NCBI RefSeq assembly: GCF_025526975.1
Contig: NW_026515696.1
Location: forward strand, 186,001-250,000
Source: Fimicolochytrium jonesii
Lineage: Eukaryota
Length of the DNA: 64,000 bases
Direction of reading: 5' to 3'
Position numbers and translations under genes: made by a program. Position 1 is the first letter of the stretch. Each line of letters opens with the position of its first letter. Shown piece after piece: positions 6,630 through 64,000 of the stretch. The notes beneath the pieces were generated by a model, which was not told the origin of the DNA, searched no databases, and was given only the letters and a program-made list of their open reading frames with translations.

Positions 6630-6649
6630 GAGCCGAGAGCCTCCTAGTC

Positions 6650-8862: not shown

Positions 8863-8908
8863 TCCTCAACAATTTCCATAATAACAGCCTCACTGCAGGT
8901 AGTTTCAC

Positions 8909-10640: not shown

Positions 10641-10679
10641 CTTCCCAAGTTCAAGCACGAGATTCTCTTCTCCAAAATC

Positions 10680-15937: not shown

Positions 15938-15938
15938 C

Positions 15939-16432: not shown

Positions 16433-16434
16433 AA

Positions 16435-17532
16435 GCGCACCACCACAACGTCAACACGACAAAGGTCGAACGTCAATCGCATACAAAATTGGCGACCTCA
16501 TCAATCTAAATCGGCAAGGGATCAACCTAGAAGTAGACGCTCGAAGAGGACTTCGATACTCAGCCACGTGCTTCGGACCATTCAAAATCATCGCACTGGG
16601 AGCACATCCTGATACCTACAAACTCGATTTATCACCATCGAAGATCGGCGGCATCTGGCCCATCTTTCACGTCGATATTTTAAGGCCACATCGCAAAGAG
16701 CAATATCCGCAAAGTGCAGTTCCACAACCTCCTCCACCAATCGAAGAACGCGGACAACCTGAATGGGTTGTAGAAGATATCATCGACGAGCGACGCGCCG
16801 TACAAAATCTTTTAGTCAAATGGCTCGGTTACCCTGACCCTACATGGCAACCCGAATCCGCACTTCGCTACATGCCTGGCTACAAACGACGGCGTAAAGC
16901 TCATCCACAATCTTTGTGGATCCGGAGACGAACAGCATAGAGCATCTCATATCACATCACATGCGCAACGCCGCAAGAACCGCTAACTACCAATCACACC
17001 GCTGACAATAGCGACGTAAACTACATTACATCACGCGCGGCGACGCAAGAGCCGACCTTACACAAACACACATATCACACGACGTCGGCTTAGGGACGCC
17101 TTTGCCTCAAACACACACATCCCACAGTGCGTCAACACTATAAAATGAACAAGTGCATCAACACCATAAAATGAACATGAGCTCTCCCTTTATTTACATA
17201 TCCCTTGTAGTTCACCTCTTATTTATTCGGCGCCCTCCTCAGGATCTGAGGGAGGTTCTGGAGATATCTCATATATTCACTTGTATTTCATATTACATCT
17301 CTTTACTTCTACTTGATCCGAGACCCAGGCTGGCCACCCGAGCTCTCGGTGACACATTACATCAGGCGCCAAGCCTCACTGAAGCCACGCAAGCCCCATT
17401 GACAACCCATATATAAAGCTGTCAGTCGAGCGGCCGCTGCAGAAAGCTTTTTACTTTTTTCTTCAATACAATACACTGCTCGCAGCCCTCTCAGAAGGGC
17501 CCAATATCGCCTACGTTTCCTCTGACGTTACA
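16435..17532 (+). mobile_element. Chromovirus (Ty3/Gypsy) integrase C-terminus with chromodomain, purine tract and 3' LTR (about 17259-17532)
   Basis: FGPFKII..PDTYKLDL..IWPIFHVDILRP (GPY/F motif), EWVVEDIIDER..LVKWLGYPDPTWQPESAL (chromodomain), then gagggagg and a TG...TTACA-bounded segment. Confidence 0.85.
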
Positions 17533-33684: not shown

Positions 33685-33757
33685 AGCCTCGTGGCCTAAT
33701 GGTCAAGGCGTCTGTCTTCGGAACAGAAGATTGGAAGTTCGAATCTTCCCGGGGTCG
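33685..33757 (+). tRNA. tRNA-Arg (anticodon TCG)
   Basis: D arm GCCT-AATGGTCA-AGGC, anticodon arm TCTGT-CTTCGGA-ACAGA, T arm GGAAG-TTCGAAT-CTTCC, and a T-rich 3' trailer. The first acceptor-stem pair is imperfect (A:C). Confidence 0.9.
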
Positions 33758-35199
33758 CATCAGTTTATTTCTTTTCTTCCATTTTTGTCAGCACACTGCT
33801 GACTGTGATATATCAACCTGCAGCAGAGGCAACTTGTGAGTTCAAGTGGCTAGGGGTGTTCTGCCACGACCACGGTCTAAGGATGTATGTACGGTGGGAC
33901 ACATGAGGAAACGGCGTCTTGTCACCTTTTTTTTTTACGAACGAGCCTCATGGTCTTCATCCATCCACAGCGGCATTCCACGCGTACATCCCTCCCACAT
34001 TACATTGATATCCAGAAAACACCGAAACGGCACTCGGCCGAGTTTGCTTTCGAAAACCAAGGCTTATAGAACGTTTCATTTCATCAAAAAGAGGGATCCC
34101 ATCGGAGGCTTTACAACGGGGTGGGTATGTACACAAGGGGATCATATATCCGTTTACAGTGCTTTTGTTTTCGAAGGAATCTGTATGTATGTATGTATGT
34201 ATGTATGTACGGAGGAAGGTCCCACGGGCGTTAGGGATAGGCGCAGCACAGCACGTACGAGCGAGAGATTGGATGTCCCGACGCAGCATCAAGCCGGTCC
34301 TGGTGCGCCGCGGTTCGTCGCCGATACCGTGTCGAGGGAAGTGTTGCGGGGGGGTATCTGAACCATCGACCGAGCGGAGGTTTTTTTTTACAAATGAAGG
34401 AACCGCAACACCCGTCTCCTGACGCCCATCCGCGCGCGGTTCTTTGCATATCCGCCTGTTCGAACCGACGAAATGAGCACATCAGTGAGCGGATTCGACA
34501 GACGAACGACGGGCAGTAAACTGTACTGTACCAGGACTCCGCTTGAACGCCAACACGTTCTGGACTTTCCAGAGGATGCGTTGCAGGCCGTTGACTTTTG
34601 ATTCTGTTGTCATTTTTTCTTGGGGTGTATATTTGTTTGTTCCTTTGTTCCGTTTCTCTGACTTCCCCGTGAGAGGTTTGGGGCTCGGTGTGTGCTCTGT
34701 GGGTTGAGTTGAGGTTGAGTGTGTTTGCGTTTTGGGGTGTCCGTTCGGAGGTGGATGGAGGTTGGTAGGTTTTATACTTCGCTGAAAGGGAGCCGGCGAC
34801 AGCCAAGGAACGCAAGGAAGGAGGGCTCAGCCACATGGCTTGCGTCGCTTGCGTTGGTGGCGTGTGTCGTCATCGCTGCCAAACTCGAACATCCTTAAGA
34901 GTGACGCTGTCGAAACGCGTGACGTACGCGCTGTACGAAAGCGCTTTCCGAAGGTCAAAGTTCGAAGCGGCGCTCAAGGGACAGAAAATAAGGAAGCATT
35001 CTGGATGGAAAGCCCATGAAGAAAAAAAAACACGCCGTCAAACCAAAGAATGTAAAGAGCACGACGGAAAGCGGTAACGATCCAGTCTAGAAACATACAA
35101 AATGGAAACAGCGGGGCCAAATGGGATACACCAACTACAACAAGGACACTATGCTAACGAAACATTCCAACCCCGTCAACACAACCGCTCTCCTCTATC

Positions 35200-39753: not shown

Positions 39754-41713
39754 ATGTCGTCCACCGCCGCCGCTACCGCCGCAAGTAGTGATACCCCTGC
39801 TGGTGCTGCTGCTACGGGATGCTTCCAGCTTACAGGGTCAACCGCTTGTCCGGATTTAAGTGGGATGTGTAAGTATGAGATACCGAGGTGGGATTGGTCG
39901 TGGGAAGACGGCGAGCGCGGGGGATCCAATGCGCTTGTGGATGCGCTTGCGAGGGGCGATTGTAGGGAGAGAAGCAAGGTCTAGGGGATGCCTGAGGGCT
40001 AACGCAGTGAAGTTGCGAGCGGAGGGTGTTTCGCGCAGGCGCACGAGACCTGGGAGCGCGCAGCGAACGGTCGTTTTCACTGTGGGAGTTGGGAGTTGGG
40101 AGGGTCGTGGGAAGGTGCTGTGTGTCGATTCAGGGGGCCTGGCAAAATGGACATCTGGACACCCATCGCTCAATGACTATCTCTTTCTCTTTACAGATGT
40201 CGCACCACTACGGAACGGGTTCAACGATGTGGCCACATTCGACAAGTACATCGTCAGCAATACGAAGCCCTCGCCGGACTACATCTCCACCTTCAGATCC
40301 GCATTCTCCTGCCCAGCGTTCGACGGTACGGGCCAACGCTACGCCACATCCGTGCAATGCTTCTTCTTTGTCGCCAAATCCGGATGCGCCGAGAACCCGA
40401 ACCCGCTCCCCGCCTCCGACACCCTCTGCCAAGCCCCATGCCAGCAGAACGTCGCGGCCAACCGAGCCATCCTCTCCAACACCACCCTCTGCACCTCCAA
40501 CCCCGCCGCCGCCGCCGGCACCAACCGGAAAGACCTCACGGCCATCGAATCCTTCTGCTCCACCCTCCCCACCACATCCAAATGCTCCAAAGGCCTCCGC
40601 GCCGAATTCGCTACCTGCGGATTCGCAACCCCGCTCGAAGCCCAACGCTACTGCTCCACCCAAACTGGGAAAGCCGACCCTTGCTGCATCATGGTCGCCT
40701 CCACCGCAGCCATGTCCGCCGGCGACCCGGGCTCTTTAGTCGACCCCATCAGCGCCACCCCTTACATCGCCTCAGGCCTCGCACTCGGCGGAATGCTCCT
40801 GGGAGCCACTCTCTTCTTCTTCTACGTCAAAGTCCGCCGCTGGAGAAGTGTCACAACCACCGCGATCCAACCAGGCGAGAACGAAATCAAGCCGGGCACG
40901 ACGCTCGGACGTACGGGTACGGTCGTCCGTGGCCGCATGGACGCCGAAGACGGCCCTTCCTCCTCCCGGGGAAGGTTCATGAACACTGTCCGGAAATCCT
41001 TCCTCGGGCCCGCCCGCTCGACTACAATCTCCCCCGCCGCACCCGGATCAGGACCAAAACAACAGTCACTGAACCGTCCACCGCTTCAGTCCCTGAACCG
41101 CCAACCGCCTATGTCCATGTACTCCGACTTCAACCCCTCCTCCTCCAACAACAATGGAACGTATCAACGCAATTCCCCCACACCCCCCATGCCAGCCATC
41201 CCACCCCGTGTACGTAACGCACCCCCGGAATTCTCGCTCCCGGTCCTCCCAACCCAACCGGCCATGATGGAAACCTTCGAGAACCGCGCACCCTCCATCC
41301 TGCCCCTCGCACAAACAATGACGGTAGTCCAGACTTACGAAGCACAAATGGGCGATGAACTAACGTTGAATATTGGGGATGTTGTTAGCGTGGATGAGGA
41401 GTTTGATGATGGTACGTCTTATATATCATATCCCCTTCCCCCTGTCTTGCCCCCCTCTAACACCTATCTATTTATATCATTAGGCTGGGCAGTCGGAACA
41501 AACCACACAACCTCCACCATCGGCGCATTCCCACTCTCCTGTCTCGAGCCGGCCTCCCCGCAGCCCTACCCGGGTGACAACAGCGATGAAATGGATCCGA
41601 GTGTGCGCGCATCGGAGTTCTTCTCGGCGTACGCGAGGCGAAGTATGCGGGATGGAAGTGGGGTTGTGAGGGAGCGCGGGGTTAGTTTGGTTGGGATGCC
41701 TAGGGGGAGGTAG
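39754..41713 (+). CDS. Cys-rich ectodomain, single TM, C-terminal SH3-domain membrane protein
   Basis: CFQLTGSTACP, a Cys-rich region, TM segment YIASGLALGGMLLGATLFFFYV, and SH3 VVQTYEAQMGDELTLNIGDVV.V.EEFDDGWA.G.N.....GAFPLSCL. Introns lie at about 39868-40197 and 41412-41483. Confidence 0.85.
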
Positions 41714-42422
41714 ATATCTTTGAGGACACGGCGTAATTGGGGACGTCGGCCCGTGACATTCCTATCATGAAGCAGACATATCCACCCACCGCATCATCAT
41801 ACATTTGTACATTCTTCTTCGACACCCCATGATCTGAACATCAACCACCATCTGTACATTTCTTCATCTGTCCCAACAAATCTTTCTGTAACCACTTGTA
41901 TATAGACAGAACAACATATAAACATGAACTTTTTTCAAGCTTTGTCGCGAATGTGTTTGAGGCTTTTTCGGGTGTGAGTTATCGGTTTGTGTTGTTGTTG
42001 TTGGAGGCGGTTACGAGAGAGAAGACAGGCAGCCACCCATGGGGGCACTTGGAAGTTTTCCGACAGCACCAAGGCTCGAAGCTGACCTCTCAGAAAGAAT
42101 CGGAAGGTGAGCTTGGATGTCCGAAAAACCGTGAGTTGTACACGGACCGGGGGGGGAGGGGGGGGGGGGGGGCGGGGCAAGACTGAGCGGAAGAGCAGGA
42201 GGGGAGGGTTCGATATGTCTCCTCGCAAATGAATGGAAACGATGGAAAGGAAGGAGCTGCGACAAGGTACAGTACACTGCGTATCCCGTCTACAGCCACA
42301 CACACCCATCCAAACACCATCTCTCCATGTCCAGAAGGCCATCGTCAGCAGGAAATGTCCGTGCGTGCCGCGTATTGGAGTTAACCAGGTTCAGTGGGAC
42401 GATCGTTTCGGACACTCATCAA

Positions 42423-42827
42423 TGTCCGAAAACGCGAACCTGACGCGTGAACAAAGACATGGGCCCTTTTCCCGTGTTTTTTTCTCATCTCCCTGTGCCA
42501 CGCACGCATTCACCAACCATGTCAGTTGTGTGTCCACGCTTTGTCAAGTGACCGGGCGTAATCTAGAACCTGATATATACCCAGCATTCGTCAAGCAGCA
42601 TTTCGGACGCTGGTCCAAACTGCGAAAGTTTCGGCTGCTGATTCACCGAATGGGGGAAGGGGTCCGATACACTCATAAACGCATTAAGAACAACCCCCTG
42701 CTCATCCGCCTTCACCCTGGGCGCGTATCGTTTGGTTACTTGTCCCAGCTATCTGTCCGAAAACGCGAAACTGACGCGTAAAGGACGGTGGGTGTGGGCA
42801 GATAGAAGAGGGCCCCCCTTCCCCCAC

Positions 42828-42858
<31 letters not shown>

Positions 42859-45800
42859 ACACGCACGGTATGTTCTTCACAGTGGTCTGGTGGACTCTGC
42901 CTGTGGTGCGCCCCGATCGCTTCGTAAAATCGATATTTCCGATCCGTAAAATAAATACCATCGGCCACTTCGGGAACTTTACCGCAGCGAACTTAGGGCA
43001 TGTGTTCCCACAAGCTTGTAGCCCCCGAACACGCGAAACTGACGCGTGATAGTCGGGCTGCCTCCTCCTTTCGCCCTTCCCTTCCCTCCTCATTTCCACA
43101 GGGTATTGTAATAACACACCGCCACGGAAATTCCACTCATCAACACCGATACTGCATCTGTAAGTCCGTCCAAAAAGCGTGAGTAAACCGCTCGTGATTA
43201 TCCCCGCTTTTGAAATAGTTCGTGACATTATTGACGCTGTTGAAGACCTAATGCAACCACGGTCTCAGACTAGTCTCGCTCTGATGCCTCAAATGTATAT
43301 GACAAACTGTGTGTGTGCGCCGCATATCGTAATTAGGGAAGGAGAACCTTGTCCGAAAACGCGAACCTGACGCGTAGATATTTGTTCGGACCACCCCCTC
43401 TCGCCTCCCCGCCTGTCCTTCTCCCCACCCCCTATCCTTCAAGTTGATGTAAGCAATCCGTTACGGGTATCTCATTCGTCATCACATCTGTACATGTAAC
43501 TCCATGGTGAAAGACCCCTTTGTCCGAAACGGAATGCGTACCACGGAGAATTCAACTCCGAGACGGCTCTTCCGGCAAGATAGGACTGGGTGCGTCCCGA
43601 CTCCGAGACCCCAACTCGCTGTAAAGAACAAGATGGTGCGAGTCCCCTGCAGCAGCAGTGCATGTCAGATGTACATCCCCCAAATCCAGTGAATGAGTCG
43701 GGTCGTGCGTTGGAAGATTTGTATGCGTTTAAAGAATGATTGCAGGAACAGAGTGCAGAAAAAATATGGTCTAACCCCTAAGGGTCGCCTCGAAACAGAA
43801 AGTTCACTTTTTTCCATCCGTTTTGCGGCCCCTGAAAAGAAGCAATAGCCGGCACACGTAAGATGCAATAGCCCGTCGCAGCCGGCAGTTTCTTTCGCCG
43901 TCCTTTCTTGTACCTCTCTCTCCCAAACCTGATATCAATGGAAGCCGCCGGAGGAGCCGAGGGTTGCAAAGACTTTTCACCGTTTGAAAAATGGGTGTGA
44001 CCGCCATACCTCCTGAGGTCTTTGAGGCAGGCAACCTGACAGGCAACCTGACAGGAGACGACAGGAGTGCAGTCGTCTTAGGCCATCTGAGGGACACCAC
44101 GTGACACGCACCTATTCCACCCCCATGTTTTGAGTAGTTTGGAGTGATCTCTCGACCTTTTTGGCGTACCTGATGTGGTCAACCGGCGCATCAGCTCTAG
44201 ACGGCGGCAAATAGTCATAGACATAGATAGCTCTGAGGTTGGAAGGCTCCCGTTCTTTTGGTCACAAGGATAGCTTATAGCGTCTATGAGCCATACAGAC
44301 ATCAGCAGAGCTTGGGAGTAGTTGCGGCTAAATTGGAATGAGCTCAACCTCCATCATTGTGCACCCCATGCATCCGTTTCTTCCGATAATGTGCCCAACA
44401 CAATTGGGAACTTTGTCCGAAAACGCGAAACTGACGCGTGGATGGGCTTAGTCAGCGCAGTACGTTTGCCGGACGACCATACGTCATGTTTTTCGCAGAA
44501 TGGGTCAAAGGTGGAGAGGGCACGGGCAGAAGATCTGGAAGGGGGGAGGGGGGCGGACAATCCGCACCAGCGGTACCGATGTCTCGACACTCCCCACTTT
44601 CACGTCCAAAGCTCGCGCTGTCGGGGGTAAAACAGGGAGTGCATAACCCTTAAGGGGGTGTTAGCACACAGATGATAAAAAACGATAACCCATCCGTCTG
44701 CGTTCCTGTACGAAATTTGGGAAGGCCCCACCGTACGGAACTTGAGTCGGGAACGCCTCTTCGAGCGTGTCGGAAGACGCCACAATCTGGGTTGGGTTGG
44801 TCAGTTCCGTCCTGCTTTCGCCTTCACTTTCCCTTCCTGCTGCCCGGCCCCTTTCTCTCACACCACCCTCTGATAAGTGCGCCACGGAGAACCTTCACTC
44901 TCACTACGAAAATCGTGTACCGCGCATATATCAAGCAAACCATGTAGTCCGAAACGCCGAAACAGACGCGTCCGTGTGCTGAACGGGTGTTTGTACAAGA
45001 GGCAGAGGGGAGGAAGCCCGGCTGTTCATTCACCTTGACGGTATCCGGGACAGTTAAGAATTATGCACTCATGCCACGACTACCCAGTCCCATAGGCCCT
45101 TCCACTTCTTGCTTTTCCCAAGAGGTTCGCCCAAAACGCAAAACTGACGAGTGAAAGGGGGCCTCCTTCACATTTTACCATCACCCCTTTCCCCTGTTCA
45201 CCCCTTGCACTATGCGCCACTATCCATACGGGAACTGGCAAATGCGGTGTGCATTTGAGGGAAAGCAGGAAATCCCCTTCCCCAAGACGTGAACCTGACA
45301 CGTACGTCAATGGGACTACTTTGGAGTCCGTGGGGTTTTCGAGACAGCCGCTCTCCGCCGAGTGTAAACCACCAAAGGTCGGCTGACAATATTTACAAAG
45401 CACGGGCACTGCCCGGGCCAGTCAGAAATGGGAGGATTCACTCATGAACGGCAATGTAACCTCGTTTTCCGGTGGGTGATCGAGGACCTGACCCCGTCTG
45501 GTTACTTCGAACTATTGTCCGAAAACGCGAAAGTGACGCGTCCAAGAGAATGGTTGGGAAAACACAAGAAGGTCGCTCCCTGCCGCTGTGTGCGAGAAGT
45601 TCGCTCGGGTCATTAACATCTTGGGCCCCACCCAGGCCCGTCACGATGTGGATGATCCACCTATGAGCAGACTGCGATTCCCACTGCTCCACCCCTTTTG
45701 CTTTCATCGGGGGCTGGGCATGTGTGTTGTCCGAAAATGCGAAACTGACTCGCTTTCTGAGCGCGAGCGGTATGGCGTATTCCGGATGGTGTGGGTATAT

Positions 45801-48322
45801 ATATATATATATAGATAGTTGCTAACTACGTACGCTACCCGTGTTTGCTATCCACGCTACCTTTAAGCACACATACTTTAATTGTTAAGTGGATGGAAAC
45901 TATAACTTGCAGCCCCAGTTAGGGTTAGGGTTAGGATTAGGGTTAGTAACACCCAGCCCTAACCGGCCGAAGGCCGCCCCAAGCGGAGCGTGTTGTTATG
46001 GTAGGTTAGTTACCCAAAAAGTCACCAAGTCTATGTCGCTTATTATAGTGTGAAGTGGAGGGTAGCGCGGTTAGCAAATTCCGTTAGCAACTCCCTATAT
46101 ATATGTACATATATATGTGTCTCACACATGTAAGGAGGACAGTGGGAACTATGCGGTAACGAAAGAAGTTGGTCGCTTGGGCAAGCGGATCCTCAGATCC
46201 GCGTAGAAAGGCCTGTGCGTCTCTCAACAGAAAGTGTCTATAACCATCCAAGATCGAAATCTAGGAGCCGACGCGTTCGTTCGCGGGCTTACATGGGCTT
46301 TTCGTACATTTGCCATCAAGCACCTCTCCCAACACGTCCCACACCACACACCGTGCGATCCACATAACCAGGTTGCGAAATCCCGGCGGATCAACTCATC
46401 TGAAAACGCGAAACTGACGCGTACATCCAACGGCCTGATTACACGTAGGCTGCTCTCTCTCCTGCTGCCAATCAAACAGTCCGCATTCTCGTATGAGCGA
46501 GTGAATATGTATGTGTCCCGTACGCCTCCATTGAGTCATGAGGAAATTTGCGACCGCCCGGTCGGCTGCCCCAACTGTCGTCCGAAAACGCGAAACTGAC
46601 GTGTAAATCGGTATGATCTTTCAGCCCTAGCCTGTCGGTTCACGGGCGGGTCACAATCGGCGTGTGTATATGTACATCTATATTCAAAAATAAAGTGCGA
46701 TAACGGCCGGGCAAGCCAGTTAGCACATCCCACCCGTGCAGATGTAGTCTATGCCTGAAAACGCGAAACTGACGCGTCAACAATACTGTGGTATTTGAAC
46801 CGCCCTGTGCAATATAGGAGTTGACTCGCCTATGCCCTGTGGGCCAGCCGTAAATACTCTTTCCACTCAAACCTTCCGCCTCCGGCCGCGCTTCCCCGCT
46901 CCCAGCAGGTCGACGAGATGTGTTTTCCCGAACTGTTGTCCGAAAACGCAAAACTGGCGCGTTCTGTACATGTACATTTCTGGCGTCTTTCGCACGGCGT
47001 AGGTGGTAATGTCTTGATTCCGCTGCTGGGCAGTGGGCAGATAACAAAACGCACAATGTACAGAGGCCCTCGTTGAGTTTGCACCCCGAGCACATTGTCA
47101 AAAAGTCTTACACACCTAAACAAAGGGCTTGCGGTCAGGGCATGGATCGGCCCCACTAACGTGTTTACGAGGGGTGGTATCACTCTGCCCCGGTGAGCTG
47201 CCAATTCACTGCGGCTTTTAGTTGGAGCAGTCCTCAATTTTGAATCTCCCTCTCCACATTTCAACTTCTGTCAGAAAACGCGAAACTGACGCGGTCAGCC
47301 TGTGTGCGTCTTTAGGCTGACTGGTCAGCCTTGTGTGCATCTTTAGGCTGACTGCGTCCGCCGGAGTTTGCATGCGTTGGCTGTAGGTCGGCCGGAGGAA
47401 AAGGAGCTTCACTGTCATCTGCCAGCAGAATGTCCGAACACAACATCTCCGCCTGTCCGAAAACGCGAAACCAACGCGTCGCCCGATGAAGCTGAGAAAC
47501 CCGCCAGAAAGAAAATTACCCGCCGGCCAAAGGAGAGACAACCGGGTGCCTTCCTTGCTCCTCTGCTGCCCTTCACGCCCTTTCCCAACGGAAGCGCAAG
47601 ACTGGATGCGTTCGTTGAGGCGTAAGTCTCGGCTCCAGATCAAACGCTTCTTGTCCGAACAACCCGACACTGGCGCTTGGTCTGCGGGCATTTTTCAACG
47701 CGCCTGTGAAGCGGGGTGAACCGTTCCACACCACTTCTCCAGTTGCTCAATCCGTATGAAGTCCGATTTACGGACTTACTCACTTGGCGTTGCATACAGT
47801 CTGTCCAGTTAAAGCGTCATCGAATATAACGGGAGTGCTCTGACGGTTGACGTTTTTGGTTCCCGCCTGTCCGAAACGGCAAAAACGCGAAACCGACGCG
47901 TCCTTGGAGAAACTCGGACATCGTTCATGCTTTCCGTCCGAAGGCACCGTAACGGAAAAAGACAGAGGAAGGGCCACGGAACTTGTTGTGGGCACATACG
48001 GGGTGGTTCTTGTCACAGAATGTGAGAAAGTTGCGCGATTCCCGCGCCCATAACTTTGGTCAGTCCATTCGATCCGCTGTCCAGAACCTCCAAGACGCGA
48101 AACTGACGAGTCGGATGGAACCCGCTCATGCGTTTCCAGCGAAGGATCGACAAGGACGATATGGCAAAGGGAAGGGCCGGTGTAGTGAGCGTGTCCAGGG
48201 TCAAGTGACGGGACAACCCACCGATCATCCTCCAACTCGAACGCGAGACTGACGCGTCTCTCCCAGCCTCGGTCCGCTATTGTGAATTTGTGAGAAGTCC
48301 AAAGAACGCGAATCGGACGCGC
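42423..48322 (+). repeat. Interspaced direct-repeat array: about 21 copies of TGTCCGAAAACGCGAAACTGACGCGT with unique spacers
   Basis: Copies start at about 42423, 42754, 43022, 43350, 44414, 44946, 45127, 45278, 45516, 45728, 46397, 46579, 46752, 46937, 47269, 47454, 47652, 47868, 48086, 48232 and 48296, all on the + strand. Weaker copies lie between them. Confidence 0.95.
45814..46095. mobile_element. MITE-like element in a (TA)n tract, with internal TTAGGG repeats
   Basis: Imperfect TIRs gatAGTTGCTAAC..tttgctatccacgctacc and ggtagcgcggttagcaaa..GTTAGCAACTccc, flanked by TA runs on both sides. gttagggttagggttaggattagggttag lies at 45918-45946. Confidence 0.7.
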
Positions 48323-49002
48323 TCGGAAGAGGGGATTCGTTTTGCGGTACGCAACAGACTGTGGGGAGGTGTCCAAAGCCAGGAATAAGAAAGCGAAGGG
48401 GCCAGCTTCTTGCCAGATTCTTGCCAGTCAGTGTATGTATGAGGAACGGGAGGCTTCGAACAGGGAATTCCTCAAAGGGATTGTAGTTGAGGGATGTGAT
48501 AATCACTGGTGCATCAAGCGTGAGTGGCAGATGCTCCTCGAAGAAGGTACAGATGATGTTCCCGCCCCAACTGTAGTTGTGCACCGTCGGGGCCGGCGAC
48601 GCCTGAGCACGCTGCCATGCCTGAAGTCCGAGGGACAACGCGATGAACGGGCCGCAGATGGACCTGTGGACCGACGAGGCCCGGAAATGCGAGCATCCAT
48701 CGTCGTCCATACATAATCCCGACCCACCGCCAACGCGTGGGGCGGGGTGCAACGGCCGACGAAGTAGCATCTGTTCCGTCGTCTCCGCATCTCCACTTCC
48801 AAAAGAACCATCCAAATCTCGCCAAAGTAAGTCATATATCAAAAAAAAAAGAAAAGTGGTATGTATATCACAAAAACCCCCAACTTGGTATAAATCAACC
48901 CAAAAAAAAAGAAGGGAATATCCAAAATCCGGCTTGCGCATCTGTTGCTAGTTTAATTGCCCACACTCCCCCCCCCCTCCCCCCCCCCCCCCCCGGTCCC
49001 TT

Positions 49003-52000
49003 TCAAGACTCCAAAACCGCCGATTTACTCGGACTCATCCCCCTCCCTCCCGCCCCCCCGGCCTCATCCCCCAACCCCTCGCGACTCCTCCCCTTCTCCT
49101 TCGAGACGTCTTCGCGGGATTTGATCTTTTTCTCTTCCGTGGCGCGCCGTTTGAGGCCGCTGAAGGCCGCGAGGAGGGATGAGGAGGCTGTGCGTGATTT
49201 TTTGCCTGGGACAAAGGGGTGTTAGGGATGTGTGTGAACGAGACACGGGTTATGGCGGGGGTTATGGCCATACCTCCTTCGTTATCCGCCAGACTTTCCG
49301 CGGAAGAATTAAGGGCCGTCGTTGAGCGTCTCGTCGCCACTGTGTGAAAAAAAAAGGGAAACAAGCCAATCAATCCCCACATTTTTTGAGTCAACCCCCC
49401 CCCCCCCCCCCCCCCCAAAAAAAAACATATACAAGCCACACATACCATCCAGACTCTCCCTCGTACTCTTACTCCGTCCCAACTTCTTCCCTTTCTTCTT
49501 CTTTGCGTCCTTCTCCTTCTCCTTCTCCATCTCCTCTCCCGGAGTCACATTACTCCCACCGCTCTTCCCCCTCCCGGTCTCCGCAGGGTCCGCCTCCGCC
49601 CGCTTGTGGGTACTCCCAGCGCCGTCGGTGGTATGATCCGGCACGCTCGCGCGTCTCGCCAGCACGCCTCCCAGGGACGTAAACACGCTCCCCCTGCGCG
49701 GCGGCGGTTGTTCCCCCGGCAGCTCCGCCGGGTTCTCGCCCGACGGCGTCGGCGGCTCGGACATCAAGCCCGTGGACGGACGATGCACGACGGGACTCGC
49801 CGCGGCGCTGCTCCGGTCGTCGTTCGCGTTCACGGTCCCGCGTTTGCTGGATTTGGACGCGGTGGCGCTGGACGAGGAGGCCGTGGCGTAGTCGCGCAGG
49901 ATCTCGTCCATCATCGCGTTGCGGGTGCGGTGGTGCGGTTTTTGGAATTTGGGCGCTTTGTACGAGGCGTTTTCGCCGTTTATCACTATCATTAACAAAA
50001 AAAGGCGCTGTTGAGTTACCCCCGCCCCCTTCACGGTCACCTGGCACCACTGTGACTACCCCGTTGAACTCACTCTTCCCCAACAGAAAATCCCTCATCT
50101 CCGCCTCATCCCAAAACACGGGCGGGGTGGGCAACGGCGGGCCGTAGGGCGGGACGTCGACGTTGGAGGCGAGCACGACGCGGTAGCCGATCTTGCCGGG
50201 GCGTGTGTGCCGGTCTTCCTGCACGGCGATGAAGATGTGCAGGAACTGCGATTTGATGGATTTGGGGTCGAAGGGCGTGTCGCCGTCTATGAATATGATT
50301 GCTACGATATCTGAAAAAAAAAAACGTCACGCGGATTAGTATATTTTACCATGTATGATTATAAGACAACATGATTTGATTCGTTTTCATTTTTGTTTTT
50401 TACCATTCCCAATATGCCTCTTCCGCTGAATCTGCTGGCGATCCTCCTTCTTATACGGCAGGAACGTCGACACGTGGTACATGACCTCAAAGTGTCTCCA
50501 TTTGGTGTACAGCGACCATTTGCCCGTCTGGCCGTGCTTGGTGTCCAGACCCGCGGAGTAGCCCGTCCATGTGGAGAGATCGATTTTGTCGCCGATGCGT
50601 GTGAGGAAGCGGTCGAAGGCGGGGGAGCCTGTTTCTGTGGGGGGGAGGGTTGAGGTGTTATATTGCGGGTGGGTGGGTGGCGATGGGGATGAATTCAGGG
50701 GGTGGAGGGATGTGATAGTAGGAAGCGAAAGGCCGGCGCTTACCATTCCCGAAAAACTCCTCCTCAGTCGTCTGTCCCGCCTTACAATACAGCACGCCAA
50801 ACTTATACCTCGTAACCGTCTCCAAAAAAAAAGGTCATCAATCCCCATCCTCCCCCGCCCTGTTCTCAAATCCCAAGACCTACCAACAACTCATCCAGCG
50901 CAACCAACCGCCTCTCAAACCCCTCGCCCGCAACCTTCCTCAACTTCCCCGGCTGTATATCCCTATGCAGCATCTGCAGCGCCGCCTTCACATCATGTTT
51001 CGGGTTCTGACGGAGCACGGAGGAGGCGGTTACCCGCGCGGCGTCGATGACTGCGCGGAGGGGTTGGGCCTACATCAAATGGATATCATTGTTCAGAGAG
51101 TCGGTAGACGGGGGGGAGGGGGAACTATGAGAACGTTACGTCTTTGGTCCGCATGATAGCCCAGAACTCTGCACCCTGGTCTTTCTCCCCGCCCTGGCCG
51201 CCACCCATGCTACCCCCGACGACGGCGGGCGGGCTCTGTGAATACGGCACGTCGGCTTTCTGAGACCCGGGCTTGTACATCAACGAAATGATGACGGGGC
51301 CGAGTTTGGGCATATCGCCTATGTAGTTTCGATGTTCTGTCCAAATCACAAACGAAACAATAGACTTGTCAATCAACAACCGACAGACAGAAAGATAATC
51401 GGGTTTGGTATGACGTACCATTCCCAAGAAAATGCCGCCGATAGTACCCTGCATCCTCATCCACATACTCCAATTTATAACTTCCGTACGAGGGGTCTCC
51501 CTCCGCCGTAGTCGTGTCGGCAATGGTTCCGGTGGTGCTCCGCAGCCCATTGTCGGGCCCGATGGCTTCGAGGCGGAAACCATCTGCCGTTTTTATTATC
51601 AGCTGAAGAAGAAAAAAAAAGCGAGAGGTCAATAAGTGTGGTGTGGTGCGAGGCGGGCGAAAGGGGGACACGCAGACATACCTTCCCCTGAGCCTCCACA
51701 TAACTACTAACAACCTTATCGGCCTCATGCACGGTCTGCAAGATCGCCTCCCTCAGCTCCCTCACCCCCTTCCACCCGCCCTCCTCAGCGCCCGCAATCT
51801 CGCGTTCCGCCTCGCGCTCCTTCGCAGTCAACTTGACAGCCGCGGCCCTCAGGCCACCCACAGGGACCAGACAATTCGCAATCTCCATCAGCTTCCGTAT
51901 CGACTCCATGATGCCTCTGAACACCGTCAACGCGATGTTGGTTTGGTTTTTCCGCGCGTTGAGGTCGGATGTGGACGCGGCGGTGGTGGGACGGCGGGCC

Positions 52001-55950: not shown

Positions 55951-58120
55951 ATGTCCGACTCGCAGTATATTGCTCAGGCTGGTGAGTTTGTATTCCGAGA
56001 CGGGGACCCGAGGGGATGGGGTTCCGACCGAGCCTTAGCAAGCGAAGCGAGCTACGCTCCGCCCACAACATCCTCGTCGCGAGCGGAGCGAGCAGGGTAA
56101 TGTTTGTTGATGCTTGATGGTTCGAAGGTTGACGGGTTGAAGGTCGATGCTTGATGGATGTTGATGTCGATGGTTAATGGGTTGATGGATGTTGACACCC
56201 TCTCGGCACACGCAGACCGCCATGTCCAAATCAAATCCAAGATCATCTGCACAATCGGCCCCAAAACTCAATCCGTCGAAATGCTCGGCAAACTCGTCGC
56301 CGCCGGCATGAACGTCATGCGCATGAACTTCTCACACGGAAGCCACGAGTACCACCAAAAAACCGTCGAAAACATCCGCACCTACCTCGCCAACGCCAAA
56401 TCCCCCAAATCAGTCGCCATCCTCCTCGACACAAAAGGGCCCGAAATCCGTACAGGAAAACTCGTCGGAGGAACCGACAAGAAACTCAAGGCCGGATCCA
56501 CATTCACCTTCCACAACGACGATTCGGTTTTGGGTGACGAAACCCAAGTCTCAACCTCCTACAAATCCCTCGCATCCTCCGTCCACCCGGGCGACCGCAT
56601 CCTCGTCGACGACGGCCTCATCGGCATGCTCGTCACCTCCATCAACCCCCAAACCAACACCGTAACATGCACGATCGAAAACGACGGCCTCCTCGGCGAA
56701 ACAAAGGGCGTCAACCTCCCCGGCATAGAAGTCGATCTCCCCGCCATCACCGAAAAAGACGCCTCCGATATCGCGTTTGGAGTCGCGCAGGGCGTGGATT
56801 TCATTGCCGCGAGTTTTATTCGCAAGGCGAGTGATGTGTTGGAGATTCGGAAGCTGATCGAGGGCACGGGCATCAAGATTATCAGCAAGATTGAGAACCA
56901 GGAGGGGTTGGAGAATTTCGACGAGATTTTGGCCGTTAGTGATGGGATCATGGTCGCGAGAGGGGATTTGGGGGTGGAGATTCCTGTGGAGCAGGGTAAG
57001 CATATGACTCCATCCTCTCTTTTTGCATCACCCCACCCTTCTTTTTTACCAACATCCTCCCTCTCGCTGGATTTTTTCCCTGTGATTTATTCCCTAGTCG
57101 CACGGTATCAAAAAATGATGATCCGCAAATGCAACGCGGCGGGCAAACACGTCGTTACGGCCACCCAGATGCTCGAGTCGATGATTGTCAACCCGCGGCC
57201 GACGAGGGCCGAGGCGACGGATGTGGCCAATGCGGTGCTGGATGGGAGTGATTGTGTCATGTTGAGTGGGGAGACTGCTAAGGGTAAGTGTTAGGGGGGT
57301 GAGCCGAGCGGGGCAAGCCTCGAGTGCGAGGGGCAGCCGAGCGGGAGCCAGCCCGAAAGCTCGCCATTCTCTCACACCTAAAATCGTGATGATGTGCAAT
57401 TATTGATCTTGTTTTTTTTTGTGATTGATTTTTAGGATCATTCCCGATCCTCGCCGTCGAAATGATGGCCAAGATCTGCCGCGAGGCCGAGATCGACATC
57501 AACTACACCGAGCTGTACCCGTCCATACGTCGCTCGATCCGCCTACCCATCTCTGTCTCGGAGACCATCGCTTCTTCTGCTGGTATGCTCACACATTCCG
57601 TCAGGAATTTCTTGCCCTTGCCTTTGCGAGAGATATATCTGACGCATTTATTTATTTTTCATAGTTAAGACCAGCTGGGATGTACATGCCGCTTTGATCA
57701 TCGTGCTTACGCAGACGGGAAACACGGCGATCGCGATCTCAAAGTACAGACCGATTGCGCCCGTGCTTGCCGTCACGTCGTCTCCACAGGCCGGTGAGTC
57801 TCATACCCCTTGTGTATCCCAGGGGAACACACGCCTCGGGTATCACACCCTTCCAAAAATCACCGAATAGAAAGCCAAAAAAACCTGACGATTTCTCCCC
57901 ATTAGCCCGGCAATGCCAAGTCCTCCGCGGGATCTACCCGATGCTGGTGGAAAACATGGAAGGCACGGAAAACATCATCCACCGCGCCATGCTGTGGGGC
58001 GTCAAGATGGGGATGGCGACCAGGGGAGACCCCGTCGTCGTCACCAGCGGCGTGCTGGAGTCGAGAAGTGGAAGCACGAATATCATGCGCGTGTTGAGGT
58101 GTGCGGGGTTTGAGGTTTAG
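55951..58120 (+). CDS. PYK1: Pyruvate kinase, multi-exon
   Basis: [103 protein letters not shown] and SGSTNIMRV. Five GT-AG introns. Confidence 0.98.
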
Positions 58121-58835
58121 ATGCGTGGGACGAATGATGGAGGATCCCACCCCCCCGATTACATGGCCACCATACGGCACACCACGCATACACCGCAACC
58201 ACCACCACCACCACCACCCCGGCTGTTTCTTGTTTCGTCGTACATTCCGTTTTGTGGGGGGGTTGGGGGGCGGATTTTTTCGCGAGTGCTCTCTCTTGTT
58301 CATAATGGTTGGAAAATGACTATACCTGTTGCACGCACACTCCTGTAGTTGGCAACCCCGGCGTCCTGGTCCCTGTTTCGAACCCCCCCTTTGCTGGTCG
58401 ACTGGCGTACGGGGCATTCCGGACCCGTATAGAGGAGATCGGGGAAGCGGGGACCGACCCACGGCCGTTCTGGCCAAGCTGGATTGATGACGAAAAGTTC
58501 GACTGTTCGCGCACAAGCAAAAGTCTGCCCCCCATCAAAAGACAATCACCAAAACCCCCTGTGATCCGCATCCGTCCGTATGTGTCCTGGCCGACAACGG
58601 TGGTGGTGTGGCTCCATCTAGCCATGCCCCGGGGAAACGCGTGCTCTCGTCACCAGGCGGTCCGAGGGGCCTGTGCGTCGACGTCGCAGCATGACCCACC
58701 GTCCGTTCATCCACCCGCTACGAACACGCTACAAGGGCGGGGGGTTCTTTGGGGGATCAGTACACCCCCCCCCCCCGCCACGTTCATCCGCACACCGGTA
58801 TCGGAAACATAGCGGGGTGTGTGTGGAGGACCGCT

Positions 58836-58866
<31 letters not shown>

Positions 58867-61047
58867 CGGTGTATCTTCCCGCGCTCGGCAGAGGAGTACA
58901 CGCCTCAGAGACCGTGTTCCAGTCCCACTCCCAGCTCCGCCACCATCATCGCTTGTGACTTTTATCGCTCACGCATCCACTGGACGTTCGCTGGACGTGA
59001 CAGAGATGGGGTACAAATACGGTACATCTGCGCTGAGATGTGGGGAGGCGCATCCATCCATCCATTCATTGATGGGTCCGTGGCTGAGGAACGCCAGGTC
59101 TGTCATATGTCATCCCACCCACATTCTCAGCCTAGTCAGACCACTTCGGATTTCCGTCGGGGGGCTGAGGAACAGACGACTCCGACAAACAGAAGCCGCG
59201 GAGGGTCGGAGAGCAAGGAGACACCCCGGGGCTGAGCATGGAGCTGGAAGCATCGACGCGTAAGACACCTGGGGGTTCGCTCGGTAACGTCTCCGCCCCT
59301 TGCTTCCGGGCTCCTAAGTTCACTCCTATGCGGAACTTGCAGTTTTGGAAGGGCGGGACTGGGAATTGACAGTGACAGGCTGTCAAAGGTGCGTGGTTAT
59401 GGAATGGACGTGGGGGCATAACATGTAGGTGAGGACAAATGGGCCGGCCGTGGGGGAAGGGAAGTGGTGTAGTTCGATGGATGGGGGTGCGCGGGAAATG
59501 AAAAGGGTAAGAGGAGCGGACGTGCGGGGAAACAGGATGTCTTTCGAGTATTCCCTCGCCAAAGGTGCCGCAACGCACGGCCCGGCCACCTTTGGAGGTC
59601 GAGGGGGGAAGGAGCGTCGGCAAGGGACAGACATTCCCATGACGGTGTGTTCGACCAAGGAGGAAACCGGCGAGCTGAGCACCTACGACGGTTTTTGGGT
59701 CCTATGCGCGGTTTTTTCAATGACACGTGGATCTATCATAGAAGGAGAGGAACGGGAGGGACTTTCTCAATCACGCTTGGATGGAGGTTTTGCAAAGCAC
59801 ACCTTCGTCGAATGGAGTGGGTCGCCATGATCTTGAGGGTAACTTACACAATGACATTGGACAAACAGACCGCTACTGGTGTTAACCAAAGATATCGTAG
59901 CTGGAAAAGGTCAGATTGGCACGAACACTCAGGAGGGATCGGGACTAGAGCAAAAGTTTGTACAGTACATGTAACGTACACCGCGCGGACTAAACCGGTC
60001 AGTGCGCTCTGATGAAGTCGCGAGGCCCGGCTTCGGTGGTCGGGAGAGCACCCACTTCGTCGATGCATGGAATGAGACGAGCAAGGAGAACAAAAGGGAG
60101 GAAAGAGGAGGAAGAAATGGATCAGTCATCTCGTAAAAGGTATCATGAACGGCCCGGCAGCAGCCAATCATCCAATATCCACAAGTGTGCCGAAAGCCTC
60201 TAAACGCTAACCCCGACGGTTGTTCACGGAAGGGGGCCGGGAGAAGAGACCACTCTTTTTCGCAGGCAAGAAAATTGGCCGCGTCGAACACCCCTGCAGT
60301 GCCCACCGTAGCACAGGTGTATGACACAAGGGTCACAGCACGCCAGATTCTAATCTGGTTCGTGGAGAAGAGTACCCAATGCAGCCGTTGACGACCGACA
60401 ACAGGAAAGGCGACTAGAACGCTGATCCCCAACGGTTGTTCACGGAAGGGGACCCGGGAGCAGTACAGTTTTTATCGCAGGCGGCCCAGAAAGGGGATGC
60501 CGTGCGCCTGATGACCGTGCGGGTCTCACAGAGACGAGGCCCGTGAGGATACGGCACGCCAGGAGTGAAACCAACCACGCCTGATCCCGGCAGGAAGCTG
60601 GAAAGTCTCTATGAGTCCGCTTTTTGCCTTTCAGACACTAATTTTTCTGATGACGGCTTTTGGGAATCTGTAGAGGTTCAGACGCGTGCAAACGTGCGCG
60701 AAGGAGAAGACGAGGTAGACGCCAAGCACGCCCCCTAAGACTCGACTGCTCCTGCCTACTGCCCTCGACCTACCACTAACTGCCCTGCGACAATGCCACC
60801 CACTGACAGTGACGGGAAGTCGCCAAATGATTGTGCTGGATCTGAATGCCGGAGCGACGCGTCAAATAAGTGGACGATTTTAATGTGGAGATTCAGGTTG
60901 CACGTGATCCCCAGCATTCTTAATGCAGATGAGATATCCCGACCTCACCCTCCGTTTCGCCGTCCCATGGCCTTCCACTCTCCATAGCTTCCCTATTTGT
61001 GTATCCCCGAGAACATCAGGAGCGACTCATATCGCTCCAAGTTCAAC

Positions 61048-63180
61048 GATGACACCACCACACGACACCACAGCAAGAAAGCTCAATTATGTCCATACTC
61101 GCCTCGTAGGAGGGGGACATATCAATCCACTGTGCTATGCGAAACACTTTAAGTCGGATCTGGGGGAGACCGCGATGAAAGCCGATTTCGCCGAGATAGT
61201 GCGTGAATACATCGACGACCGCCTGCCGCTCCTTCGCGGCAAGACATACACGAAGAGTCGCGAAAAACTGGAGGCGGCGCGCAATTACGCCGTAAGTGCA
61301 GGGTCGGGACATCGAAGATGGTAGCTCAGTATATGGACGCAGTGCAGCATGAGCGCAACAGTGCAGCAAACGGCTTAACGCGTGGGGCGGGTTTGGGGGC
61401 GTCCCATTGCTGACGAGAACTCTCATTTCTTTCGTCGTAGTATGCGAGCGATGGGGCGTGGAAGGCATGGTGGGTCAAAAGAACCTCGAGATTACAACTC
61501 GAAGAACAAGCCGGCCGACGCCACGTTGCGATGGGCGAGCTGACGACGCAAAGGGAAGAAGAAGAGGCTGGTCTTCGCAAACGTAAGCGCGGGGAGTCGC
61601 CCGAGCCTGACCAACTCTCATGCGACGACGACGATGTCGACGAATGCACCGAAGATTCCGCAACAGTTTCCGAGGAGGCTACCGAAACCCCAGCGCTGAA
61701 CTTTCCCAGCGTCCTGGGAACAGAAAAGTTGGTGCAGCGCATCAAAGAGCTTCATCAAGCGAACGTGTCGCTGGTGGCGGGCGGCACTTTGATCTGGTGT
61801 GTTCTGGTGTGCGTTAGATTCTGCTGACAAGAAAAGCTATACCCTCTTGAGCAAGATCGTCAGGGATAAGGCAAAGCGCCTGACAGAAGACGCGCTCGGC
61901 GATGAAATGGCGGGCGCCGCGCTCGACGAGCGGAAATCTCCCCTTTTGCGTACACAAGTTATGGTCGCAGCTATTTCGATTTGCTGGAGGGGCCATACTT
62001 CAACGTTTTCTCGGAGCCATACGATGCGACATTTCCGACCTTCTGTACCCTCCAGTGGTTGCACGGCAACCGCATCCACCGGTTGGAATCGCCCTGGTAA
62101 TGACCGAGATCGAATCCATGAGCACTTCAGTGATGTTGTGGTGGGAATGCCTCGACATCATCCGACACTTGGCGCGCGGAATTCCAGTGTAAATCATTAT
62201 CCACCGTGACGGAAGCCCGCTCTGCTTGACGCTTCCCAAAGCAATGTGACTTCTGGGAAGACTGCTCGACCATCGACAAGGCGAGCTTCACCCGCTGGAC
62301 GCCGATGGGCAGACATTTGCTCGGCAACTGCGCGACATCCAACAGGTTCGAATCAAGAATTAGGAGAGGGGCATACGGGGCATTCGTATGGCGGGCTAAA
62401 GTCGTTCTGGGAGAGAATGGATGGGGACGCGGCAGAAACGAAGGAGGCGAGCCGCGACGCCGACGTCCGGTACATCATGAAGTGTCTGCGTGCCATGGCA
62501 ACGCACACCAGCACGTATGCATGCCATACAGAACGTGCATTCGACGCACATGCAGTGCTTCCTTTGGCCGAGGTGCCTCTTGAGCCCAAACTGCACTATG
62601 GCGATTCGATGCCAGTTTCGGGCCAAGAAGAGAAAACGCCGCGGCGGGGGAAGGACGTTGAGTACAATCTGTCACCATATGTCTGCGACCACCTGTGACT
62701 TCCAGGCCGGCCCCCTGCGACAATGGCAGCCGTCGCGATGGACACTGACTTAATCCCGTGAGGTCGCAGACATATGGTCACAGACTGTACCTATACAAGA
62801 TATCCGGACACGAGCACGGGTGCGCAGAGAACTCCGGGCCGCTGATCAAGGCACACGAGCTCCATGCGGCAGAGAACCTCGTCAGCTTGGCCAAGACATG
62901 CAAATCTCAGGCAAGGGCGCTTGCCAGGCTCAACCCAGCTCAGAAGGAGAAGATCGTCGTGCCCTCGTTCCAGGTCCATTTCCTTTTCCGCGGAATGATA
63001 ACGACACTTAAAGCGTCATGGACATGTGCGAATTCTTCTTTATATACTCTGTACGAGCAATGCAGACAGTCCCGCATAGGCGAAACATCCGACGGTACTC
63101 AGAGACACCCCAGAAGAATGCAATGGCAGGCATCATGACCCCGATGAAAAAGGGGGATGTCAATCAAGCAAACTCCAACC
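61048..63180 (+). other. Fragmented or spliced hypothetical protein locus, possibly with a PD-(D/E)XK-like C-terminal domain
   Basis: A chain of same-strand ORFs (60923-61324, 61531-61827, 62246-62698, 62758-63138) with HTERAFDAHAVLPL..LHYGDS..EEK..RGKDVEY and L.SLAKTCK.Q..VPSFQVH. The resemblance to expanded nuclease-fold families of early-diverging fungi is only impressionistic. Confidence 0.35.
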
Positions 63181-63567
63181 CGCAGGCGAGAGGAGAAACT
63201 GCAAAGGAGTCCGGAAGCGGGCACCGTCCGGCTGGGCAGCGTTGAAAAGGATGACGAAGAGGTCGTAGGGAAGAGCGGAGGGCGTGTTCTGGGTCGGTTC
63301 AAAGGGGAGATGGGGATAGGATGGAGTGGCTTCGGCTTTATTGGCGTATGGGGGTGGAATAGGGTGGACTTCGCCTGAAAAGAGCCATGTGGGCTGGGAT
63401 GTGGTGGGCTACGATCAATGCTCGTCGCCGTGATGCAGAATTGCACGCCTTCATGATCGCGAATGACTGCTCGCAGCCGGCCCCCTTTTCAATACAAGTT
63501 TGCAGGAACTGCGTGGGCATTGCTGTAGCCCGTCCCGCTGTACACTGCACCTCGCCCCTGTGGCACC

Positions 63568-64000
63568 TCACCGGTCACATGAGTTCATCCTTCCCATCCT
63601 CGCCATTGTCCTGTATATCGCTCCTCCGCCACAGATTGTCACAGAGATTGGCTGCGATGTTAATGAGCTTCTTGGCTGTCGCCATTCGATCCTGATCAGC
63701 TCTCTGGCTTTCGTGGTGCAGGCTTCGGAGCGCTTACCCCAGCGGGTGGTGATGGAGCAACGCGCTGTCAAATTGTTACTGCGCCGACCCAAAGTCCCCG
63801 TATTTCGACAGAGTGCGTCAATGCCATGTGTAGCTGTTCTAAACCGTGGCAGCAGTCCACATACACTGTTCTAACTCCCACGTTCCCTCCAGCGATGGCT
63901 TAAGTTCTTTCAAAGCCCAAAATCTGGCTCTCGCATTGGCAAACTGCAACAAGAGGTCTGCTTGATCAAAGATGCCAGATATCTCTTCGTTGATCGTCAC
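63568..64000 (-). CDS. Possible 3' end of a gene running off the window edge
   Basis: Open frame from the edge (VTINEEISGIFDQADLLLQFANARARFWALKEL..), a GTATGT donor-like site, and a downstream frame ending ..KDELM*. Confidence 0.25.

Follow-up and report, generated by a model that had tools for sequence, protein, structure and literature searches.

Results

A same-strand array of a 26-bp box lies between two convergent genes

We analyzed a 64-kb stretch of Fimicolochytrium jonesii DNA (here called the window). In it, an SH3-domain gene and a Rap-GAP gene converge on a 7.6-kb non-coding gap, and an array of a 26-bp box fills 42.1 to 48.3 kb of this gap, 0.4 to 1 kb from the flanking genes (Table 1). 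The last exon of the Rap-GAP gene was inferred from its open frame and codon score. We found no hidden gene in the gap: none of 95 frames had a Pfam match above the cut-off, transposases included, and the codon score was non-coding. Non-coding stretches of 3 to 6 kb are common in the window, and the gap is not exceptional. The GC content of the array is 0.53, and it ranges from 0.47 to 0.58 in 400-bp bins across the gap. Several genes separate the array from an LTR-rich block at ~5 to 17 kb. No retrotransposons flank the array, and no terminal inverted repeats were found around it except poly-G/poly-C runs. The MITE-like insertion within the array contains telomere-type hexamers. A PX gene frame used as a homologue query gave no match.

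Table 1. Positions of the genes, boxes, and other features at the array locus (numbered from the first letter of the window)
Feature	Position	Strand	Remark
SH3-domain gene, likely membrane span	39860..41713	+	3' end towards array; SH3_9 E 4e-4, below cut-off
26-bp box array, ~22 copies	42118..48323	+	Matrix and profile scans
Degenerate first box	42118..42143	+	Left half intact
Left group	42423..43375	+	Strong boxes 42423, 42754, 43022, 43350; weak sites 42612, 43167
Box identical to majority sequence	42754..42779	+	
Left half-copy	43521..43530	+	171 bp past box 43350
Box-free stretch	43547..44413	none	893-bp gap
Short 12-bp tandem repeat	44028-44055		Inside box-free stretch
Middle group	44414..45753	+	Strong boxes 44414, 44946, 45127, 45278, 45516, 45728
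Weak left half of box	44768	+	Middle group
MITE-like insertion, 282 bp	45814-46095	none	Imperfect terminal inverted repeats; TA runs both sides
Right group	46397..48323	+	Strong boxes 46397, 46579, 46752, 46937, 47269, 47454, 47876, 48086
Degenerate copies	47431, 47652, 48232, 48297	+	Right group
Left halves of boxes	47868, 48078	+	For 47876 and 48086, right group
Rap-GAP gene, 3' part	49309..50890	-	3' end towards array

The window holds 18 strong copies of the box and about 22 in total, without exception on the + strand. When all 64 kb were scanned with the box matrix, 20 of 20 matches were on the same strand and inside 42423-48297. No matrix match fell outside the array in the 64 kb, and the best outside profile match had an E value of 0.056. 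The finding of an earlier sequence-only reading spanned 44414 to 48111; the array starts ~2.3 kb further left. The same reading listed six weak half-copies at expected mid positions. Four of them (42612, 43167, 43521, and 44768) were above background (0.06 to 0.23 per kb), whereas 44603 and 47096 were at background level (9.8 and 3.3 per kb). Stricter scoring picked two of the six (43521 and 42611).

Searches for related arrays found none within their scope. The exact box 25-mer had 0 matches in metagenome contigs. A 17-mer of the box occurred at at least 120 loci (flanks examined for 80), and in viral contigs an 18-mer occurred at 3; there was no array among the 123 matches listed. A loose two-dyad pattern matched at least 120 loci in viral contigs; among the 243 loci listed, none had two matrix matches above 15 bits.

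The box is sharply bounded and very probably under selection

The box begins with a left element containing CCGAAA and continues with an ACGCG-7 nt-CGCGT inverted repeat; its two CGCG cores are 11 bp apart. Across 19 copies, boxes were 86% identical to the majority sequence. Conservation dropped to background immediately beyond the 26 positions, and the flanks were near random up to the box edge. Such sharp edges fit selection better than conversion, and we consider it very probable that the box is under selection. The loop of the inverted repeat is conserved equally to its arms. Outside the boxes, the left hexamer occurs more often than expected on either strand (9 and 6 versus 1.4 and 1.6). 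TGTACA is also enriched (11 versus 1.9), and CSL words showed no evident excess (5 in the array versus 16 outside). We rejected a branch-point reading of the box, for which a pyrimidine tract and AG lie downstream in some units only.

Neighboring boxes tend to lie 140 to 240 bp apart

The sequence-only reading proposed that boxes recur at roughly nucleosome-repeat length. On recount, its gaps of 181, 151, 238, and 212 bp, of 182, 173, and 185 bp, of 332 and 185 bp, and of 331 and 328 bp were exact. Its gaps of 198 and 216 bp hold if two incomplete sites are counted, 47652 (a degenerate copy) and 47868 (a left half), and its list omitted the ill-fitting gaps of 268, 305, 893, 23, and 68 bp. The gaps between strong boxes of the left group are 331, 268, and 328 bp. 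The size of the MITE-like insertion was confirmed, so subtracting it does turn the 669-bp gap into 387 bp.

Among the 18 strong copies, the smallest gap is 151 bp (p 3e-4 versus uniform placement). In bands selected after the gaps had been seen, 9 of the 17 gaps between strong copies fell at 150 to 240 bp (p 6e-4), as did 13 of 23 at 140 to 240 bp with a fixed score threshold (null 4.9, p 1.5e-4); two looser score thresholds placed 13/25 and 16/31 gaps at 140 to 240 bp. Spacing like random placement had been named as evidence against the proposal, and we found that the spacing is non-random. With a 140-bp hard core, tests for a ~180-bp period were borderline (p 0.03 to 0.6), and band tests gave p 0.015 to 0.08. 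In-phase and anti-phase pairs at one to four units numbered 14/3, 9/5, 6/9, and 4/5. The spacing is a preference between neighbors and not a lasting ~180-bp phase, which is gone by the third unit; we rejected a long-range 180-bp lattice. Helical phasing of the gaps was not found (best period 10.04, p 0.69).

A probable origin from tandem units that have decayed

The spacers are nearly unrelated, with a mean similarity close to that of the control; identity over aligned columns is uninformative for them, since random pairs score equally high. In an all-against-all comparison, the three most similar of 231 spacer pairs were all neighbors, and the overall neighbor excess had a p value of 0.055. 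The pairs 43022/43350 and 45278/45516 (p 0.0003 to 0.003 each) and 47876/48086 (p 0.005 to 0.018) stood out singly, with no single pair significant after correction for 231 tests. Of 300 upstream pairs, 2 were above all 1500 null pairs, one of these sharing a box variant. Tandem Repeats Finder reported no ~185-bp period at the array, where neighboring spacers are weakly similar. The earlier suggestion of an ancient ~180-bp tandem unit in which the box survived thus gains modest support from the sharp box edges and the similar neighboring spacers. Judging from the sequence, tandem units of ~185 bp have likely decayed here while selection retained the box, and an origin by local duplication is quite probable.

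Indel drift of 6 to 12 indels per spacer would spread the unit by 18 to 25 bp, and the observed SD is 24 bp. Drift alone matches the gap spread, so nucleosomes are not needed to explain the spacing. A tandem-repeat origin is compatible with one site per nucleosome. Eight of the 18 single-unit spacers are 145 to 159 bp long, which leaves room for one nucleosome core with the box as linker; four of the 18 are 117 to 125 bp, below a full nucleosome core. We found no 10- to 11-bp WW/SS dinucleotide periodicity above shuffles in a low-power test, and our literature search found no paper on the chytrid nucleosome repeat length.

A proposed DNA docking array and candidate regional centromere

We tentatively propose, as the most probable role but at less than an even chance, that the array is a DNA docking array and a candidate regional centromere. 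A ~185-bp tandem repeat would have decayed while selection preserved the 26-bp box alone. The box is a predicted double-stranded DNA docking site for a sequence-specific, probably dimeric protein, and the boxes together would be the platform of a regional centromere. One protein is predicted per nucleosome-sized unit, recruiting or positioning centromeric chromatin. The box repeats in CenH3 chromatin of Meloidogyne (PMC8097292) and the motif-defined Mucoromycota centromeres are precedents for this reading. We lean slightly towards the box being bound as DNA rather than as RNA: its inverted repeat lacks covariation beyond shuffles, its loop is conserved like the arms, and outside the boxes its left hexamer is in excess on each strand. 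Against this, a weak folding excess on the + strand points towards RNA. Against a centromere, no observation links the locus to kinetochores, the array is not AT-rich, and retrotransposon flanks are absent; the LTR-rich block could itself be the centromere. The 117- to 125-bp spacers and the gaps of 23 and 68 bp speak against one box per nucleosome.

Only slightly less probable, and likewise below an even chance, is a + strand transcript made up of repeated modules, either a non-coding RNA or a long 3' continuation of the SH3 gene. Each box would then form a short hairpin (5 bp, A-rich loop of 7 nt) on a variable outer stem, bound by an RNA-binding protein. The product would be a multivalent decoy or scaffold, and the spacing would be an old module length. 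NORAD-type decoy RNAs have repeated same-strand modules; the array resembles them in having such modules in non-coding DNA and differs in that no covarying structure is shown here. Every copy is oriented like the upstream SH3 gene, and we counted the TGTACA enrichment for RNA. Pairing of the 3' flank with the 5' part on the + strand exceeds background (p 0.002 to 0.016) and shuffled flanks (p ~0.01), compared with p 0.3 to 0.5 on the - strand. Folding against shuffled flanks gave z scores of -0.58 and -0.65 on the + strand (p 0.02 and 0.04) and was not significant on the - strand. However, the copies share ancestry, which inflates these p values. A compensatory change occurs in the copy at 45278, but it consists of two CpG transitions. 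Covariation did not exceed shuffles, 127 and 102 of 500 of which reached the observed values (22 paralogous copies, low power), and RNAalifold gave no consensus structure. Inner-stem probability was ~0.5, not above shuffled flanks on the + strand. Flank-swap tests were mostly null: in a first set one of six gave p 0.028, and a second set gave p 0.43 to 0.69. No Rfam family matched the array at gathering score (best E 0.45), and we attributed a snoRNA-like match at E 3.7 to chance. The hairpin is strong by eye and is not supported by consensus fold, covariation, or swap tests; we retained the RNA as a rival.

We consider it quite unlikely that a known class of factor binds the boxes as DNA in a non-centromeric role. 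The boxes could be double SBF/MBF (KilA-N) or E2F sites that act as an enhancer or as a sink titrating the factor. They could also serve the space between the convergent genes as a polar terminator, a fork barrier, a boundary, or an origin. The majority box includes SCB-like CGCGAAA and MCB ACGCGT, the consensus words of SBF and MBF according to part of PMC4862756. CGCGAAA occurs 11 times in the array and once outside on that strand, and ACGCGT occurs 14 times in the array. According to the same paper, Spizellomyces has SBF as well as E2F, and the chytrid SBF/E2F motifs are stated to be unknown. For fission yeast, two MBF sites in tandem have been described, spaced more closely than here (PMC1157095). 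However, the array is enclosed by two 3' ends and is not at a promoter or the start of a coding gene, its ~20 copies are spread over 6 kb, and the conserved left element and loop fall outside the consensus words. Unlike the MCB/SCB sites in these two partial sources (PMC4862756, PMC1157095), both words are embedded here in a longer fixed 26-bp word with many spaced copies.

A functionless relic is unlikely and the least probable of the four readings. It would descend from an old satellite or from the end repeats of transposons, and its box would owe its uniformity to short conversion events or to recent copying. The duplication traces, the decayed copies, and the tolerated MITE and 893-bp box-free gap speak for it. 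Against it are boxes 86% identical to the majority beside near-random flanks, 95 frames free of transposase or other Pfam matches above cut-off, and no bracketing terminal inverted repeats besides poly-G/poly-C.

Comparison with known systems

Should the array prove to be a centromere, scanning with the box matrix would locate every centromere in these fungi and thereby reveal their chromosome number, and the array would represent a third motif-defined fungal type next to those of budding yeasts and Mucoromycota. As an RNA or an SBF/E2F site cluster, it would remain a selected element not described before. By title and abstract opening, we found no paper in the mostly open-access literature that describes a chytrid centromere or the 26-bp box.

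In alpha satellite with its CENP-B box, one co-oriented protein box occurs per nucleosome-sized unit. Its monomers are homologous over their full length and extend for megabases with a different box sequence, unlike the chytrid array. A short box conserved among divergent units, as in the Meloidogyne and CENP-B type, was found here. In Meloidogyne, a holocentric animal, CenH3-bound centromeric tandem repeats have divergent monomers with a conserved 19-bp box; the monomers are 45 to 83 bp, 56 to 73% alike, and still tandem (PMC8097292, partial text). The array shares with these repeats divergent units that have one short GC-rich dyad-symmetric box in common (PMC8097292, same part). It differs in its 145- to 240-bp units, its barely alignable spacers, and its single locus.

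In the mosaic centromere of Mucoromycota, a single 41-bp motif adjoins an AT-rich core (~1 kb, ~70% AT) within 15 to 75 kb of gene-free, LINE-rich DNA, and the motif occurs at centromeres alone, one per chromosome (10.1101/706580 and PMC12925627, both in part). The chytrid box is absent from the rest of the window. Compared by these partial descriptions, both cases involve an early-diverging fungus and a motif in a gene-free region; the chytrid array has ~20 boxes, genes 0.4 to 1 kb away, and neither an AT-rich core nor retroelement flanks. Centromere cores of Mucor and budding yeast are AT-rich, and the array is not. The box includes CCGAA, a 5-mer that may occur by chance and that is named for CDEIII of the Saccharomycetaceae point centromere in part of PMC12925627. 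That centromere is a single unit of CDEI, AT-rich CDEII, and CDEIII, in contrast to ~20 copies without an AT-rich element. It is doubtful, yet conceivable, that the locus represents an undescribed design of sequence-defined chytrid centromere, in which ~20 co-oriented boxes, one per nucleosome, would lie in 6 kb of otherwise unique non-AT-rich DNA and have a dimeric reader, perhaps a protein of the SBF/KilA-N or E2F type co-opted for this role. Such a design would be intermediate between satellite and point centromeres.

Box sequence and conservation

The box is a 26-bp motif, and its roughly 22 copies all lie on the + strand. With up to three mismatches, its 22-mer occurred 15 times, compared with 0 in 100 shuffles. 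A matrix built from 17 copies gave 20 hits above 6 bits, 20 of 20 on the + strand and all inside 42423-48297. A profile from 22 copies recovered those 22, as it must by construction; its best match outside the array (E = 0.056) is probably due to chance.

Across the 18 strong copies, conservation spanned 26 positions and dropped to background immediately at either side. A left element with CCGAAA is followed by the inverted repeat ACGCG-7 nt-CGCGT, which places two CGCG cores with one helical turn between them. We found 11 exact dyads inside the array and 0 outside. Over 15 copies, the two arms had substitution rates of 0.05 and 0.08 and the loop one of 0.07; the rate for the first six positions was 0.18. 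An 8-bp spacer separating the left from the right half is common to the copies at 47868 and 48078. Together with the first strong box, an inverted left element at 42405 makes up a perfect inverted repeat. Between 41750 and 49300, TGTACA occurred 11 times versus 1.9 expected, at no fixed distance to the box.

Box spacing

A sequence-only reading had proposed that boxes recur about every 180 bp. Its start-to-start gaps were correct on recount, as was its length for an inserted MITE-like element. We found that the spacing is distinguishable from random placement. Among the strong copies, no gap was below 151 bp (P = 3e-4 versus uniform placement) and 9 of 17 fell at 150 to 240 bp (P = 6e-4), a band that, like the 140- to 240-bp band, was set after the data were seen. 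With a fixed background rate as the criterion for sites, 13 of 23 gaps measured 140 to 240 bp (null, 4.9; P = 1.5e-4) and 2 were below 140 bp (null, 8.4); looser thresholds placed 13/25 and 16/31 gaps in the same band.

Regularity held for neighbors and then faded. Pair distances peaked at 150 to 240 bp and again at 330 to 360 bp, and phase was lost thereafter (in-phase/anti-phase pairs at one to four units: 14/3, 9/5, 6/9, and 4/5). The best periods, 175 to 192 bp, had P values of 0.0004 to 0.17 versus uniform placement and 0.04 to 0.6 with a 140-bp minimum built in. Gaps of 268, 305, 893, 23, and 68 bp, left out of the earlier reading, fit poorly, and the gaps showed no helical phasing (P = 0.69). 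Four of the six weak half-copies that it placed at expected mid positions exceeded background and two did not; picking by fixed background rate retained two of the six.

Origin of the spacing

Most of the spacers bear no relation to one another. Mean local scores equaled those of reversed or complemented controls downstream of the box and were slightly above them upstream, and self-search of the masked region found no spacer repeats. Among 231 pairs from 22 units, whose boundaries took in the half-copies, three scored above every reversed control; each of these was a pair of neighbors. With boxes excluded and local shuffles, pairs 43022/43350 and 45278/45516 gave P values of 0.0003 to 0.003 and pair 47876/48086 gave 0.005 to 0.018, none of which survives correction for 231 tests alone. 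Neighbors compared with non-neighbors gave a P value of 0.055, and an orientation-flip test gave 0.043. Upstream, 2 of 300 pairs exceeded all 1500 null pairs, and the upstream pair 45127/46937 also has a box variant in common. The similar neighbor spacers, the upstream pairs, the common box variant, and the common 8-bp spacer together provide modest evidence from sequence that the array arose by local duplication. The proposal of an ancient ~180-bp tandem unit of which only the box survives gains modest support from neighbor likeness and from the sharp edges of the box.

The 15 single-unit gaps averaged 187 bp (SD, 24), and a simple simulation with 6 to 12 indels per spacer gave SDs of 18 to 25. 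The observed SD lies within this range, and therefore inherited unit length accounts for the spacing without nucleosomes. The nucleosome idea, which would be compatible with an inherited unit length, has a sole point in its favor: in a list that includes weak sites chosen by us, 8/18 single-unit spacers measured 145 to 159 bp. Against it, 4/18 measured 117 to 125 bp and no 10- to 11-bp periodic signal was seen, at low power.

DNA site or RNA hairpin

We lean toward the box acting as a DNA site. That its dyad is instead an RNA hairpin is a less likely alternative: on the + strand only, the 3' flank pairs better with the 5' part, and folds there are slightly more stable than flank shuffles, but copies have no consensus fold, covariation is not above shuffles, flank-swap tests were mostly null, and related copies are not independent in such tests. 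The left hexamer is enriched on both strands outside boxes, as an orientation-free DNA site would show. It is improbable that the array is a relic.

As a DNA site, each box is predicted to bind a dimeric protein, so that the array would be a docking array of nucleosome-sized units, and its 6 kb would serve as a regional centromere. We infer duplication of units and selection on the box. The box contains SBF and MBF consensus words (compared with those in sections of PMC4862756 and PMC1157095). SBF and E2F are both present in Spizellomyces, with motifs there unknown, according to the same sections of PMC4862756. Because of these words and this joint presence, SBF and E2F would be the first candidate binders.

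Genomic setting

The 7.6-kb gap holding the array is non-coding by codon model; none of its 95 frames of at least 50 codons had a Pfam match above cutoff, and Rfam and ARAGORN scans of it found nothing. Further non-coding stretches of 3 to 6 kb each occur elsewhere in the window. LTR retrotransposon remnants lie at about 5 to 17 kb, and the retrotransposon block is a rival centromere or heterochromatin candidate. The MITE-like element has no second copy within the window, and two short palindromes resemble transposon footprints or collapsed transposon ends. The top named matches of the pyruvate kinase exon (Geranomyces, 82%; Rhizophlyctis, 82%; Spizellomyces, 80%; Gaertneriomyces, 79%; Thoreauomyces, 78%) point to a source in Spizellomycetales or close kin.

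Features of the window and their positions
Feature	Position	Strand	Remarks
Retrotransposon block	3200-17000		Decayed copia- and gypsy-type pieces; repeats 83-88% identical; one piece with SH3 and weak chromodomain matches
tRNA-Arg(TCG)	33685-33758		Single gene
Weak box-like site	34913-34950		Behind PX-domain gene
SH3-domain gene	stop at 41713	+	3' end borders gap
Inverted left-element copies	42040-42610		Cluster at left edge of array
Palindrome	43770-43792		Short
Palindrome	44637-44668		Short
MITE-like element	45814-46095		282 bp; TA runs at both sides; internal telomere-type hexamers
Rap-GAP gene	frame ending at 49309	-	3' end borders gap
Pyruvate kinase exon	56155-57291
Stretch without Pfam match or coding signal	58200-64000		About 5.8 kb

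Comparison with known systems

Nine phage contigs (L124, L130, L133, L135, L149, L158, L167, L171, and L192) carry two ACGCGT repeat blocks at about 3000-3250, with an 11-bp period and about 140 to 185 bp between blocks; many more occur among at least 120 loci (L124-L243) matched by a loose two-dyad pattern. In 9 of 9 scanned, the blocks sit within a gene matching PHROG 16167 replication initiation protein, which adjoins DnaB helicase in two cases. Judged by sequence, they are likely origin iterons inside the initiator gene. They have the word in common with the chytrid box and no homology beyond it.

The consulted text of a fungal genome architecture review lists no chytrid centromere (PMC7385547). 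Mucoromycota and budding-yeast centromeres, as described in parts of 10.1101/706580 and PMC12925627, need an AT-rich core, and the chytrid array fails their defining features. Its architecture resembles that of the Meloidogyne CenH3-bound repeats, which carry a conserved dyad box according to sections of PMC8097292.
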